Shown piece after piece: positions 3,216 to 39,338 of a stretch of DNA of 39,827 nucleotides; the first letter of the stretch is position 1, and every line of letters begins with the position of its first letter. The position numbers and the translations under genes are program-made. Under the pieces are notes generated by a model. The model was not told where the DNA came from. It worked only from the letters and a program-made list of their open reading frames with translations, and did not search any database. The DNA lies in the IMG/VR virus record IMGVR_UViG_3300015262_000002, positions 1 through 39,827 of that record. The stretch is one strand, 5' to 3'. The stretch comes from a virus. Lineage: Duplodnaviria; Heunggongvirae; Uroviricota; Caudoviricetes.

Positions 3216-3606
3216 AGTAATCATGGGTGAGATTGGCATCACTCGGAATAGTAACGGGTTCGTCTACATTCGAATTGAGGACAGTTCCAGTCATTCACAG
3301 TTCGTTGAGCTGAAGCTGACGTTGGAGCAGTTCGCTGAAGCGGTTACTGGGTTGCACACGTCAGATGTTGAGATGACTGTACGGAACCTCGACCGTGTTG
3401 GTAAACGTCGTGTACGTGAAGAACGTAGTGTGGTATGTCCACTTAATACATACAAGAAGGAAGAAATACGACAATGGATGGCAGATCATTGTCAAGAAGA
3501 AGGATGGGTGGTTGACGATTATCTTGGTAGTCAGAACTCAGTCAAATCGGTTGACGGTGGAACTCTTCTCAAGTATGCTGTCACCAAATACGTAGAGGTA
3601 CAGTAA
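3208..3606 (+). CDS. Hypothetical protein
   Basis: Packed ORF with GAGG SD. Confidence 0.75.
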   Translation: MSKVIMGEIGITRNSNGFVYIRIEDSSSHSQFVELKLTLEQFAEAVTGLHTSDVEMTVRNLDRVGKRRVREERSVVCPLNTYKKEEIRQWMADHCQEEGWVVDDYLGSQNSVKSVDGGTLLKYAVTKYVEVQ

Positions 3607-3607
3607 C

Positions 3608-3859
3608 ATGATTCTGTTAGCTAAAGCCGTTCTGATTGTAAGTATGATGCAAAATGCTGGTAATGCTACAGTAGGTAGTGAGAGCGTGTCAGTTGTCTCT
3701 AACATGGATGAATGTCGAGGTGTCATGATCGCCCACATGTCAACTAAAGGTGAGGTTATTGATGTGGCTAGTCAAACTGATTCTCTGAAGTTTACCCAAG
3801 TGAGTCCCGGTTGGATGACCAACAACATCAAGTATAAATTGACCTGTAAGGAGTTGTAA
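3608..3859 (+). CDS. Hypothetical protein with signal-peptide-like N-terminus
   Basis: MILLAKAVLIVSMMQNA; two Cys. Confidence 0.65.
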   Translation: MILLAKAVLIVSMMQNAGNATVGSESVSVVSNMDECRGVMIAHMSTKGEVIDVASQTDSLKFTQVSPGWMTNNIKYKLTCKEL

Positions 3860-5854: not shown

Positions 5855-5870
5855 AAGATAATAACTAAAG

Positions 5871-5897
5871 AGCCCGCCATTGAGCGGGCTTTCTTTC
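5871..5897 (+). terminator. Rho-independent terminator
   Basis: AGCCCGC-CATTGA-GCGGGCT then TTCTTTC. Confidence 0.85.
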
Positions 5898-6064
5898 ATC
5901 TTCAATTTGTAAACCAAGTTTTGGATTTGATAGAGTATTTTGAGTTTCTATTTTTGGCCTAAAAATCCCCTACACCCCCTTTTTCAATATTGGGAAAGTA
6001 GTTTTCGATTTGGGTATTTTCAGAAATTCACTGGTAGGAAATTTGAATTGGAAACGACATGAAA

Positions 6065-6079
6065 TGATAATCATTCTCA
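6065..6079. promoter_or_regulatory. Fur-box-like 7-1-7 site
   Basis: TGATAAT-C-ATTCTCA, one mismatch to TGATAATnATTATCA. Confidence 0.5.
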
Positions 6080-6473
6080 TATGAGATAGGGAGTGAGACG
6101 GATTCGCATTTAGAACCTTGAATGTTTCTCATTCCTATTCTAAAAACAGGTTGCGTTTGTATCATCCACACTTCGACCTTCGGAATCCCGACGACAATTG
6201 AATACTACAGTGAGTTTAGCACGTATACAACACTTATTTTAATGCGTGTTGACAATCATTTGCATTCGTAGAATGACACCCACTCTCCTTGTTTGTCTCC
6301 AGTGCTCGACGTTCCTTCGTCTGCGTTGCCTGCTGTGTATGATTATATACCAGCTGCAAAACAATACAAGCGCTTTCTCTAAATCTTTTAACCTTGACAG
6401 CTTTTGAAAAGTGTGCTATTCGCACGCGCCCGTCTCCTCATATTGCAGTGTGAAAAGAATTTGAAATAAGGTG

Positions 6474-13470: not shown

Positions 13471-13486
13471 TGTTCCACGTGAAACA
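13471..13486. promoter_or_regulatory. parS: parS-consensus palindrome, copy 1
   Basis: TGTTCCACGTGAAACA fits TGTTNCACGTGNAACA. Confidence 0.75.
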
Positions 13487-16564: not shown

Positions 16565-16804
16565 ATGAAAACCATCTTGACTCTTTCAAATATCAATGTA
16601 AACAATTTCCGTACCATGCATGACATCGTTGGTACTGCTGGTTATGCTGGGAGCCTAAAGCTGGTTAATGAAGAAACATACACGGTTGATCTTGGCGATG
16701 TTGAATCCCGCCTTCGTGCCATGATAACCGAGCAAGAAGTAAAGATTATGATCGGTGAGCTAATCATGCTCACTTCCATCAAAGTTGAATCCAGAACAAT
16801 CTAA
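16565..16804 (+). CDS. Hypothetical protein
   Basis: AAGGA SD; start trimmed. Confidence 0.7.
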   Translation: MKTILTLSNINVNNFRTMHDIVGTAGYAGSLKLVNEETYTVDLGDVESRLRAMITEQEVKIMIGELIMLTSIKVESRTI

Positions 16805-16810
16805 ACCAAT

Positions 16811-16826
16811 TGTTCCACGTGAAACA
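16811..16826. promoter_or_regulatory. parS: parS-consensus palindrome, copy 2
   Basis: TGTTCCACGTGAAACA, identical to 13471-13486. Confidence 0.75.
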
Positions 16827-16828
16827 TA

Positions 16829-16850
16829 AAAGCCCCGAAAGGGGCTTTCT
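16829..16850 (+). terminator. Rho-independent terminator
   Basis: AAAGCCCC-GAAA-GGGGCTTT then CT. Confidence 0.8.
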
Positions 16851-16959
16851 CATACAAGCAATAATTATTCTCATTATCATCAGTTGTTAGCATGATGTAC
16901 CCGATTATCACAGATTGTTAGCAGAATCAACCTATTCTATGGGTATTTCTTGTACTGTA

Positions 16960-16989
16960 TTGACATAAACAGCATTTTCTTATTATAAT
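16960..16989 (+). promoter_or_regulatory. Consensus sigma70 promoter facing hairpin array
   Basis: TTGACA-N18-TATAAT. Confidence 0.7.
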
Positions 16990-16999
16990 GCCCTATGTC

Positions 17000-17736
17000 C
17001 ACCCGTAGTAACGGGTGAATAGGTATTAGAGAGACAGGAAAGAGTGGGGATAAACCCCACAAGAACAAAGAGTATGTATTAAAGAATACTATTATAACGT
17101 ATAACGTTATAGAATTACCTATTGTTATGTATACATAACAGGCGTACATATCAGATATAGAAACAGGGTAGTAACCCCTGTTCTCTCCCCTTGTATACGG
17201 TAGTATACCCTCTGTAACCTCCTACAGTACCACTCACTGCATAGCAGTGCAGTACCCCTACCATGTGCATAGCACATCATGTACCGCTTCTTACAAAGCC
17301 TTATAGACCATGGCTTACAAGCCATAAGCATATAACAACATGTCGTAATAACGACATAATAGTACCTATTCTGATATATAAGACTATTCGGGGATAAGCG
17401 TACATTGGGACAATGGGCTAAGCATCCCACACTCACTATCATCCCATTATATGGGATAGAGTATAAAATACCCTTGATTTATCAAGGTAAATAATAATCA
17501 ATATCATTTACTAATACGTGCATTCTGCACAAATAAATGGATAAAAGGTGTACATTCTGCCCGCATGGGCGTATAGTGAAACATTGTGGTAAGGCTGTGC
17601 AATGCAGCCATATAGAGACAACCACTCATACCCAACCCATCGATAGACAATACCTTCACGGTGCATACCAAGGGAGGGAATACAGCTGTGCGTGTAATAG
17701 GTATTATGTAAAATGCGATTGAATGCTAATCATTCA
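17000..17736. other. Gene-free array of about 18-20 short stem-loops
   Basis: Successive 4-8 bp inverted repeats with 3-6 nt loops; arms mutually unrelated. Confidence 0.8.
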
Positions 17737-17761
17737 CATATGGTGACCAACCGAATCACTT

Positions 17762-17778
17762 AGCAAGGTTTATGCCAA
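17762..17778 (-). promoter_or_regulatory. sigma54-consensus site facing hairpin array
   Basis: Minus strand TTGGCATAAACCTTGCT (GG-N10-GC). Confidence 0.55.
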
Positions 17779-17941
17779 CTCTAGGGATTTTAGAATTATA
17801 TCGACGGGTGGTAGCTGCCTGAAGTCCGGGGCGTTAAACTCATCAGAGCTACTTATGGGGTAATAGGGGATTTAGGGTTGTCGGATTTCCAAATGAAAGC
17901 CAAATTGAGAAGTGCAAAATAGGGAAAATGAAATTTCAGGC

Positions 17942-17968
17942 AAAAAGAAACCCTCGGTTAAGAGGGTT
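17942..17968 (-). terminator. Terminator of leftward genes
   Basis: AACCCTC-N6-GAGGGTT with TTTCTTTTT on minus strand. Confidence 0.8.
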
Positions 17969-17986
17969 GATAATAAAGTATAAAAC

Positions 17987-18532
17987 TTAAAGAAGGTGTT
18001 TCCAAGTCTTACCTTCTGTGATCATTCTTGCTGTACCCTCGGATATACCAAACTCTTTAGCAAGTTTTGTCCGTTGACCGTAAATTCCTTTTACTTCTTC
18101 CCAGCGTTTACGCAGTTCAATAACTAGATTGTCAGTCATGACAGCAAGATGATGATCTGTACCTTTTGCTACACTATCAACCACTTTCTCAAACTTAACG
18201 CTTCTTTGGTAGTGTTCCTTGTTATCATCAGGTAAGACCCATTCAAGATTAACCATTGTATTATTTTCGATATTTAAATCTTTGTGGTTGACTTCCAAAT
18301 CATCCATTGCTGGGTTTGGTTGGAATGTAATCATCACCAGACGATGAACCAACATTGACTTTCGTTTACCATCTCCGTAATATAGCTGGACAGTAGTATA
18401 CCCGACTGTGTTCGGACTACCTTTTAGAACCTTCTCAACCTTCCGGTATGGTTTTACAAGACTCTTAACCCTACCCAAATTACTCACTTGATAACAACCT
18501 TCAAACCCTGCGATATCTTTCCATTCTTCCAC
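17987..18532 (-). CDS. NUMOD4-HNH homing-type endonuclease
   Basis: EEWKDI...YQVSNLGRVKS; VHRLV ... VNHKD ... NN ... NLEW. Confidence 0.9.
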   Translation of the reverse strand: MEEWKDIAGFEGCYQVSNLGRVKSLVKPYRKVEKVLKGSPNTVGYTTVQLYYGDGKRKSMLVHRLVMITFQPNPAMDDLEVNHKDLNIENNTMVNLEWVLPDDNKEHYQRSVKFEKVVDSVAKGTDHHLAVMTDNLVIELRKRWEEVKGIYGQRTKLAKEFGISEGTARMITEGKTWKHLL

Positions 18533-38864: not shown

Positions 38865-39338
38865 ATGAGTAGTGAGTTTTACAAGGCACCTAAGAATCTG
38901 ATGAGTGCTACAGGATTCGTAAGTAAATCAACAGGTGAACCAGTAGACCTTACTGCTGTTGATAAGCTGGTACTGATCTATATGTACGCAAGAACCACGT
39001 ACTTCAACAATTCAGGATGTGGTCATTATGAAACACAGGTCACCATTGGTAATGCAATCGGTTTGGAATGGAAAGCTGTAGCAAGATCGTTAAAGAAGAT
39101 GTATGATGGTGGTGTACTGGATGCTGACAAACCAAGATCGAATGGTAACAAGAGTTGGGTGTATAAGAGTGTGAACCTTGACATTAATTTCTTTGGAACC
39201 AAGAGAATTCAAAAAGAAGTGAACATAGTGGTTGACAAGGTTGTAGAACCTAGTATCATGGAACCACAAGCAAACGACATCGAATACTGTGAATACGATG
39301 ATGAATTTTTACAATCAGTGAGGTTTCGAGATGAATGA
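38865..39338 (+). CDS. Winged-HTH protein, replication-initiator-like
   Basis: DKLVLIYM ... ETQ-x-x-IG-x-x-IG ... V-x-R-x-LK-x-M-x-x-x-G-V; AGGA SD before ATG 38865. Confidence 0.55.
   Translation: MSSEFYKAPKNLMSATGFVSKSTGEPVDLTAVDKLVLIYMYARTTYFNNSGCGHYETQVTIGNAIGLEWKAVARSLKKMYDGGVLDADKPRSNGNKSWVYKSVNLDINFFGTKRIQKEVNIVVDKVVEPSIMEPQANDIEYCEYDDEFLQSVRFRDE

Follow-up and report, generated by a model that had tools for sequence, protein, structure and literature searches.

A covarying array of mini-hairpins at a predicted genome terminus of a phiPMW-like phage

Introduction

How phages recognise, cut on both sides and duplicate short direct terminal repeats is still modelled largely on T7, whose hairpin intermediate was never explained. 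Here we describe a dense array of small perfect hairpins at positions 16960-17778 of a viral sequence (IMG/VR record IMGVR_UViG_3300015262_000002, Caudoviricetes), in a gene-free region where homology to related phages predicts a genome terminus. The window, meaning the whole stretch of 39,827 nucleotides analysed, is the first 39.8 kb of a 103,827-bp phage genome, and coordinates refer to it unless another record is named.

Judged by TerL, the phage is closest to phiPMW (78% identity), followed by vB_PpS_SYP (SYP) and vB_PsaM_M1 (M1) at 65–70%. Beyond this group the best TerL matches are mostly Pakpunavirus-type Pseudomonas myophages, at ~39% over 93–96% of the protein. The terminal repeats of these related phages have been mapped by run-off sequencing, coverage or PhageTerm. 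Coverage-defined ends of PAK_P3 and PAK_P5 read ...TCA^AGCCATT... and ...CTTGTT^AAA (AAAC in PAK_P3), with the caret marking the cut (Henry 2015, S1 Table; PMC4309531), and PhageTerm placed those of Adele at ^AGCGAC... and ...GTGGTT^AAGT (PMC12846349). In the PAK_P3 transcriptome, gp113, “the predicted genome terminus”, is the sole untranscribed feature (PMC4933390), and a Hi-C preprint on the same phage describes a “hairpin-like” fold of the early region whose tip consists of two gene-free untranscribed sequences. The PaP1 genome was said by its authors to lack complicated secondary structure, and the published accounts of Pakpunavirus and Nankokuvirus termini that were consulted (Adele, PAK_P3/PAK_P5, PaP1) make no mention of hairpin enrichment.

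Three more distant systems offer functional comparisons. T7 likewise has a short direct repeat that needs cuts on both sides and duplication, and its record carries promoters directed toward both ends (A0, leftward at 224, and phiOR at 39229); a hairpin-ended, repeat-containing processing intermediate is known, with strand-displacement and primase models of the duplication (summarised in PMC4281155). The iss region of T5-like phages contains eight DnaA boxes in pairs, and its elements are conserved in sequence (10.1101/866236). It resembles the present locus as a conserved, palindrome- and repeat-rich non-coding stretch of ~1.2–1.7 kb that borders a terminal repeat and whose neighbouring genes are poorly conserved; T5-like phages also sometimes carry an HNH endonuclease gene inserted in or near the repeat region, as is also seen beside the region here. 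T5 has 10-kb repeats and two-step DNA transfer, whereas the stems described here covary and the predicted repeat is short. The promoters of the N4 virion RNA polymerase are extruded DNA hairpins of 5–7 bp with 3-nt loops, close to a genome end with a ~0.4-kb repeat. Where N4 has three such hairpins, the present locus has ten or more, without a common flanking promoter sequence.

Results

A single dense peak of perfect hairpins

A hairpin is defined here as a perfect stem of at least 6 bp with a loop of 3–6 nt, unless another cut-off is given, and enrichment was assessed against up to 2000 dinucleotide shuffles of 16960-17778. This stretch contains 13 hairpins compared to 1.17 ± 1.10 after shuffling (maximum of 6 in 2000), and the excess holds for stems of at least 5 bp (20 vs. 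4.35 ± 2.08) and at least 7 bp (5 vs. 0.32 ± 0.60). The dense array that had been predicted from inspection of the sequence is thus well above background; the hairpins that had been listed, such as CACCCGT-agta-ACGGGTG (17000), ATGTGC-ata-GCACAT (17263) and ATCCCAT-tat-ATGGGAT (17441), are all present where they had been placed, and the proposed total of 18–20 stems agrees with the count at the 5-bp cut-off. Across the complete genome the 17–18 kb bin is the sole hairpin peak, with 14; the runner-up bin has 7 and all the rest have 6 or fewer. Predicted folding energies of the 13 hairpins as single-stranded DNA range from -3.2 to -8.0 kcal/mol. The array occupies part of a non-coding interval, 16811-17975, between tiny plus-strand early genes on the left and a minus-strand nucleotide-metabolism module on the right. 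Its parts are as follows.

17000..17357, no strand: core mini-hairpin array in unique DNA, ten perfect hairpins, recognised by shuffles and covariation
17000-17017, 17044-17060, 17093-17111, 17123-17140, 17162-17182: array hairpins 1–5
17193-17208, 17235-17249, 17263-17277, 17310-17325, 17340-17357: array hairpins 6–10
17441..17487: two hairpins within the predicted terminal repeat, ATCCCAT-tat-ATGGGAT and CCTTGA-ttta-TCAAGG

To the left of the predicted repeat, 16990-17420 has 11 hairpins (one an overlapping alternative) vs. 0.87 ± 0.95 in shuffles; the predicted repeat itself, 17421-17835, has 3 vs. 0.66, a number reached by 16 of 500 shuffles. The arms had been described as unrelated to one another, which is mostly true, although two stem tops recur within the array, (T/G)GC-ata-GC(A/C) and GT-a(g/a)ta-AC. 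That many loops end in TA was also borne out in the window, for 8 of the 15 perfect hairpins in 16949-17975, but this feature is not conserved (2 of 18 in SYP). About 70% of loops are 3 or 4 nt long. Head-to-tail copies of one unit, as in CRISPR, ToxI-like elements or iterons, were not found; there are only short two-copy direct repeats, and arms differ from hairpin to hairpin. On the plus strand the array hairpins have no T-run, so they are not intrinsic terminators, and only a few weak scores were obtained for the minus strand.

Compensatory change across relatives

Homologous non-coding regions were taken from phiPto-bp6g, phiPMW, SYP, G004, M1 and six IMG/VR contigs (L118, L126, L127, L128, which is the same as G008, L140 and L141). 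Searches with blastn gave no link from the window to phiPMW, SYP or M1, and these three regions were located via synteny, motifs and hairpin density. An AT-rich motif scan of the collection returned more than 118 loci, nearly all by chance, with L118 the one real match; L125, found with a second pattern, was a false positive in a coding region, and a 24-base pattern had no match among the metagenome contigs.

The flanking genes vary among relatives while the non-coding region persists. Each of the ten closest regions contains 10–18 perfect hairpins per kb (nine at 10–15, and SYP at 18), and in G004, G005, G008 and M1 the genome-wide hairpin peak is in a single region, which is the homologous one in all except G005. 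The distant relative G004 has kept both the array and the boundary motifs described below, with no clear counterpart of the promoter that precedes the array.

RNAalifold, applied to a 7-sequence alignment, predicted 125 pairs; both partners have changed in 34 of them, nearly all of which belong to local hairpins. For 78 local pairs, 87% of cells are strictly Watson-Crick and 31 pairs are compensatory, in contrast to 3–11 with slid partners and a mean of 16.9 (maximum 26) in 1000 within-column shuffles. Examples of covarying series are ATGTGC-ata-GCACAT / ATGGGC-ata-GCCCAT / CTATGC-ata-GCATAG and CACCCGT-agta-ACGGGTG / CTGTGCT-agta-AGCACAG / CTCCCGT-atta-ACGGGAG. Because stems change compensatorily across relatives, hairpin shape is under selection, in line with the earlier suggestion that shape was selected rather than duplicated. 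Two long-range pairings from RNAalifold (columns 35-45/954-964 and 317-321/906-910) were set aside, as they consist of invariant columns alone.

In three aligned relatives (L140, L141 and L126) the slot of ATCCCAT-tat-ATGGGAT is occupied by a parS palindrome. In phiPMW (KU862660, 20814-21442; L006), annotated gp59-gp62, several “phage-specific promoters” and terminators are inside the homologous non-coding region; these are probably spurious calls.

A predicted terminal repeat with conserved boundaries

Both the first and the last base of the SYP record (OQ183418, 107,173 bp) lie within the homologous region, and its two ends carry an exact repeat of 351 bp (1-351 = 106823-107173). Both repeat ends, which read ...GGCTA^AGCC... 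and ...GCTATT^AAGCC, fall in the two most conserved blocks of the alignment, both invariant: GGYTA^AGC and, as it reads in the window, GGGGCGTT^AAAC. We verified the published repeat ends of PAK_P3 and Adele on their sequences, and a left boundary of YA^AGC and a right boundary of GTT^AA are shared by Adele, PAK_P3, PAK_P5, SYP (right end GCTATT^AAGCC) and, by alignment, the window. The corresponding boundaries in the window lie between 17420 and 17421 and between 17835 and 17836, which defines two features.

17421..17835: predicted 415-bp direct terminal repeat, from AGCATCC... to ...CCGGGGCGTT, by alignment to SYP, PAK_P3/PAK_P5 and Adele
17390..17428: two-tier stem-loop with the predicted left cut, outer stem GGGAT/ATCCC, inner stem CATTG-gga-CAATG covarying, cut GGGCTA^AGC

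The predicted repeat is gene-free. In the eight phiPMW-like regions closest to the window, in G004 and in PAK_P3, a covarying hairpin of 4–6 bp precedes the left cut by 3–6 nt; it is further upstream in M1, and Adele has none. An outer stem forms between bases ahead of the cut and the start of the repeat (in the window, GGGAT...^AGC ATCCC), and predicted DNA folding energies of these left-cut stem-loops are between -4 and -13 kcal/mol. The stem-loop at the left cut site is best treated as a lead.

Taken together, the region is very probably a genome terminus, and the predicted positions of the ends rest on one deposited record plus agreement of motifs across genera. On this prediction, 16960-17778 would comprise a promoter (P1), the array in unique DNA abutting the left cut, and the first 360 bp of the repeat. 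Two other possible repeats were considered. The whole-genome record (G000) has an exact 123-bp overlap between 1-123 and 103705-103827, far from the predicted terminus, which is an assembly circularisation artefact and not a physical repeat. A long terminal repeat spanning 5.9–17.9 kb was also rejected, since the non-coding regions at its two edges share just a 21-nt Fur-like motif and the 10-nt TAGGGGATTT, and the conserved boundaries favour 415 bp.

Hairpins at mapped termini of related genera

Enrichment of mini-hairpins is also found at termini that have been mapped. The 1165-bp repeat of Adele contains 12 perfect mini-hairpins (1.16 ± 1.07 shuffled), and the PAK_P5 terminus region 11 (1.85 ± 1.33), with five immediately ahead of the left boundary and five inside the repeat. 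In PAK_P3, RefSeq gp113 lies in a gene-free gap, 62818-63738, that overlaps the coverage-defined repeat at 62771-63516.

The locus therefore resembles Pakpunavirus and Nankokuvirus (PaP1, PAK_P1, Adele; PAK_P3, PAK_P5) in its homologous TerL (39% identity), in a repeat that runs from AGC... to ...GTT and is followed by AA, and in a largely gene-free terminus rich in perfect 6–8-bp hairpins with 3–4-nt loops; with PAK_P3 it also shares a hairpin a few bases upstream of the left cut. It differs in the length of the repeat (415 bp predicted here vs. 750–1190 bp), in that hairpins of those genera lie for the most part within the repeat and draw on a few recurring stems (GATAGC/GCTATC and GGCTTC/GAAGCC, each three times) whereas all stems here are different, and in having P1, as no strong promoter reads into their termini and that of PAK_P3 is reported to be untranscribed.

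Two families of direct repeats were observed in the relatives: about six copies of CCCTC(T/A)AGATGTT(A/G)CTAAC in L128 (~3560-3760 of the locus), and about eight copies of CATTGTGTAAC, in both orientations, in the PAK_P3 repeat (62800-63450; L153). Both are candidate binding sites for the small terminase.

Strand symmetry of the stems

If the stems acted in a transcript, G.U wobble pairs might be expected to be tolerated on one strand. Cells with G.T and with A.C are similarly rare by three countings (7 vs. 5, 12 vs. 18, and 21 vs. 32 at stem flanks), and local-fold z-scores are about -2 to -7 on both strands, neither being consistently stronger. No Rfam family was matched at gathering score, the sole match at E ≤ 1 being a chance-level small RNA on the minus strand; a transfer-RNA scan returned nothing, and no plus-strand terminator for a P1 transcript was found in the region. 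The symmetry fits DNA hairpins, or the use of both strands, better than a single transcript, which is a mild argument; short RNA stems might likewise avoid wobble pairs, so symmetry is not proof of DNA. One conserved single-stranded linker, TAA(C/G)CTCCTAC (17212-17222; alignment columns 274-285), holds CCTCC, the anti-Shine-Dalgarno core of the 16S ribosomal RNA 3' end, and would be relevant only if the plus strand acts as RNA.

Elements surrounding the array

Other recognisable elements of the non-coding interval and its edges are given below, from left to right.

16811..16826, no strand: host-type parS 16-mer TGTTCCACGTGAAACA, at the left edge of the non-coding region
16831..16846, plus strand: terminator-like hairpin AGCCCC-gaaa-GGGGCT followed by TTTCTC, closing the early-gene module and also present in relatives
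16873..16932, plus strand: two 29-nt direct repeats with core TTGTTAGCA..A..A.CC, 30–90 nt upstream of P1
16960..16989, plus strand: promoter P1, TTGACA-18 nt-TATAAT, reading rightward into the array, 12/12 consensus positions
17701..17736, plus strand: conserved -10-like GTATTATGTAAAAT, then hairpin TGAATG-ctaat-CATTCA
17762..17777, minus strand: sigma54-like TGGCAT-N5-TTGCT with one mismatch, its TGCC...AGCA core invariant in relatives
17784..17945, plus strand: GGGATTTT, GACGGGTGGTAG and the right cut motif, then G-rich GGGATTT/AAAATAGGG repeats outside the predicted repeat, kept in all relatives
17949..17968, minus strand: intrinsic terminator of the minus-strand module
17987..18532, minus strand: HNH (NUMOD4-type) homing-endonuclease gene adjoining the region

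P1 is the perfect TTGACA/TATAAT promoter that had been noted as facing the array from the left. It is conserved in the ten closest relatives, with the first hairpin 5–10 nt past the expected transcription start, and its -10 positions T36, A37, A39 and T41 are invariant in the 7-sequence alignment. The 29-nt direct repeats upstream are kept in phiPto-bp6g and L118 and are probably operators for a regulator of P1. Of the sigma54 site that had been proposed to face the array from the right, the near-consensus match and its conserved core stand, but sigma54-like matches across the window are at chance level (2 found vs. 1.66 expected).

The conserved hairpin TGAATG-N5-CATTCA (17720-17736; alignment columns 809-825) matches the centre of a Fur box at 12 of 13 positions and is directly downstream of a conserved TATAAT...GTATTATGTTAAAT block, so that an iron-regulated promoter could lie within the terminal repeat. 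A second gene-free stretch, 5860-6470, at the other edge of the early module, has a terminator, T/A tracts and an inverted TAGGGGATTT, and its 1-kb bin counts 4 hairpins. It also has an exact Fur-box core (AATGATAATCATT), the 21-nt motif of which equals 17722-17742 at 19 of 21 positions.

Sites of the parS type, GTTCCACGTG[G/A]AAC, occur in the window at 13472-13485 and 16812-16825, each just ahead of a terminator. Relatives with parS sites include L140, L141, L126, phiPMW (L006, ~20510 and 20737) and SYP (L146, 294-309 and 963-976), and in several one such site is located within the predicted terminal repeat. Loading of ParB/SMC at parS-type sites may be one possible cause of the fold seen by Hi-C in PAK_P3.

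Both flanking modules close with their own terminator. A strictly convergent junction is not universal, as a same-strand gene is next to the region in L118 and phiPto-bp6g. The HNH gene is absent at this place in phiPMW, phiPto-bp6g and L118, and is for that reason probably a mobile insertion outside the element. Elsewhere, gene content includes a lambda-J-like tail fibre, a tape-measure protein, a T7-type primase-helicase, a DNA polymerase, a ligase and nicotinamide adenine dinucleotide (NAD)-salvage genes.

Discussion

A possible role in genome-end processing

The array is more likely part of an end-cutting or packaging signal than a decoy RNA, and we put the chance that the hairpins act as DNA in genome-end processing, in a loosely T7-like manner, at about even. 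The stretch would then cover the beginning of a short direct terminal repeat together with its inner flank, the place at which concatemers get cut into genome units. Along a concatemer the predicted order is early genes, parS, terminator, P1, ~430 bp of unique DNA with ten 6–8-bp hairpins, and the left cut, followed by the 415-bp repeat with three more hairpins, the right cut GGGGCGTT^AAAC, and the G-rich GGGATTT repeats. Once the duplex is opened, whether by a passing replication fork, by supercoiling or by transcription from P1, the palindromes would be free to fold on both strands, and the folded hairpins could serve as a structural landmark for terminase or its nuclease beside the left cut. 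They may also keep the two strands separate during copying of the repeat, through strand displacement or hairpin-assisted synthesis, as proposed for T7. What the sequences show is the enrichment, the covariation, the Watson-Crick purity of the stems and their placement next to conserved boundary motifs; that this phage has its ends here, that its hairpins extrude, and that they take part in cutting or duplication, we infer. Single-stranded priming or end duplication had been among the three functions originally proposed and fits best of these, since by homology the array abuts the left repeat boundary.

A more specific version of this proposal is that phiPMW-like siphoviruses, Pakpunavirus and Nankokuvirus all mark the left repeat boundary with extruded mini-hairpins, that terminase cuts at the base of the covarying stem-loop by reading structure together with YA^AGC, and that the array is needed for junction opening and repeat duplication. 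We regard this version as possible but rather doubtful.

Several observations weigh against end processing. An RNA is probably made, because P1 is a consensus promoter, is conserved and points into the array. Stems of 6–8 bp are short for cruciform extrusion from intact duplex, and the need for ten or more hairpins is left unexplained. Among relatives, M1 has kept the boundary motifs with fewer hairpins and no clear P1, the hairpin peak of G005 could not be interpreted, and the break points of metagenomic contigs from this clade are arbitrary. Considered by itself, the gene-free gap of PAK_P3 shows no significant excess (3 hairpins vs. 1.24), because its hairpins begin further upstream. The 351-bp SYP overlap could be an assembler artefact, as the SYP paper reports no termini analysis; against an artefact speak the position of its ends in the most conserved blocks and the occurrence of the same ends in mapped, terminase-related genera. 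In T7, the outgroup control, the first 1.5 kb of the genome has 1 perfect hairpin and the final 1.5 kb has 4; with no array at its ends, the analogy is functional only, and we do not assign the present locus to the T7 type.

Alternative explanations

The main alternative is a non-coding transcript of ~0.8 kb from P1, a string of mini stem-loops acting as regulator, decoy or pausing leader for an RNA polymerase on its way to the repeat. The consensus sigma70 promoter conserved in the ten closest relatives, the first hairpin near the expected 5' end, the compensatory stem changes, the partial conservation of loops and C-rich linkers (e.g., CCCTACC and TAACCTCCTAC), and the lack of a conserved open reading frame (ORF) in the aligned regions would all suit such a molecule, which would be an unusual bead-string RNA running off the genome end. 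It would not be expected, however, that G.U is not favoured over A.C, that the minus strand folds no worse, that 3-nt loops dominate, and that there is neither a plus-strand terminator nor an Rfam family; in addition, the region is kept in G004 and M1 without a clear P1, palindromes that look like duplex protein sites (parS- and Fur-like) fill hairpin slots in relatives, and the analogous hairpin-rich terminus of PAK_P3 is reported to be untranscribed. We therefore consider such a transcript unlikely, though worth keeping in mind, and the earlier proposal of a decoy or sponge RNA in particular found no support in base pairing, strand symmetry, Rfam or the silent PAK_P3 terminus, although the conserved promoter that reads into the array leaves some room for it. 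Transcription from P1 might instead prime replication, with the hairpin-folded RNA forming a persistent RNA–DNA hybrid at the downstream G-rich blocks, as in ColE1, T4 oriF/oriG or T7. The secondary origins of T7 coincide with its end-proximal promoters, and here a promoter and structured DNA are followed by conserved G-clusters on the RNA-like strand (GGGATTTT, TAGGGGATTTAGGG, AAAATAGGG), with a turn of the cumulative GC skew at 16–17 kb. Yet the skew turns where the coding strand changes as well, neither an iteron-binding initiator nor an AT-rich unwinding element was found, and an origin would leave unexplained both the match of the boundaries to mapped repeat ends and the strictly Watson-Crick stems, which makes it improbable.

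That the array sits between two modules ending in terminators, with stems that work on both strands, and that the PAK_P3 terminus is silent despite flanking genes in the same direction, would be consistent with a bidirectional buffer, in which RNA hairpins from either strand slow or stop polymerases and keep the packaging site free of transcription. We find this quite improbable, as the hairpins have no U-tracts, proper terminators already flank the region, a strong inward-pointing promoter inside it makes little sense, and conserved loops, linkers and a covarying cut-site hairpin are not predicted. Highly improbable, finally, is the pair of proposals with which the original prediction began, an injection-stop signal like that of T5, or a sponge for host proteins that bind DNA or RNA or act in defence. 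As in the T5 iss (10.1101/866236), an untranslated, palindrome-rich stretch of ~1 kb adjoins a repeat boundary and exceeds the neighbouring genes in conservation, and host-type parS and Fur-like boxes are in or beside the region. The injection-stop signal nevertheless found no support: 16800-18000 has no DnaA box (TTWTNCACA) on either strand (7 in the whole window) and no conserved direct-repeat set of the T5 type, the elements of T5 are conserved in sequence whereas these covary, and the predicted repeat is ~0.4 kb rather than ~10 kb. Sequence-specific host proteins are excluded as a common ligand because most palindromes change sequence between relatives. Hairpin promoters of the N4 type were ruled out for lack of a virion RNA polymerase: no polymerase-like protein is among the ten ORFs of at least 400 aa, the largest of which are the tape-measure protein and the 1499-aa J-like tail fibre, and the authors of phiPMW likewise found no RNA polymerase.

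Implications

The element offers a mutable cis-acting target, a cut site in a covarying stem-loop together with a hairpin array, in which sequences are free and pairing is constrained. It recurs in Pakpunavirus and Nankokuvirus, therapeutic genera whose ends have already been mapped, and it predicts where the physical ends lie in those phiPMW-like genomes whose records are arbitrary circles. Small annotated ORFs in the region, such as those of phiPMW named above, are flagged as probably spurious, and phage engineers would do better to leave the region undisturbed. If the more specific version, with terminase reading the extruded hairpins across the clade, were true, end processing in these phages would be structure-specific, and their packaging class would have its first defined cis signal.

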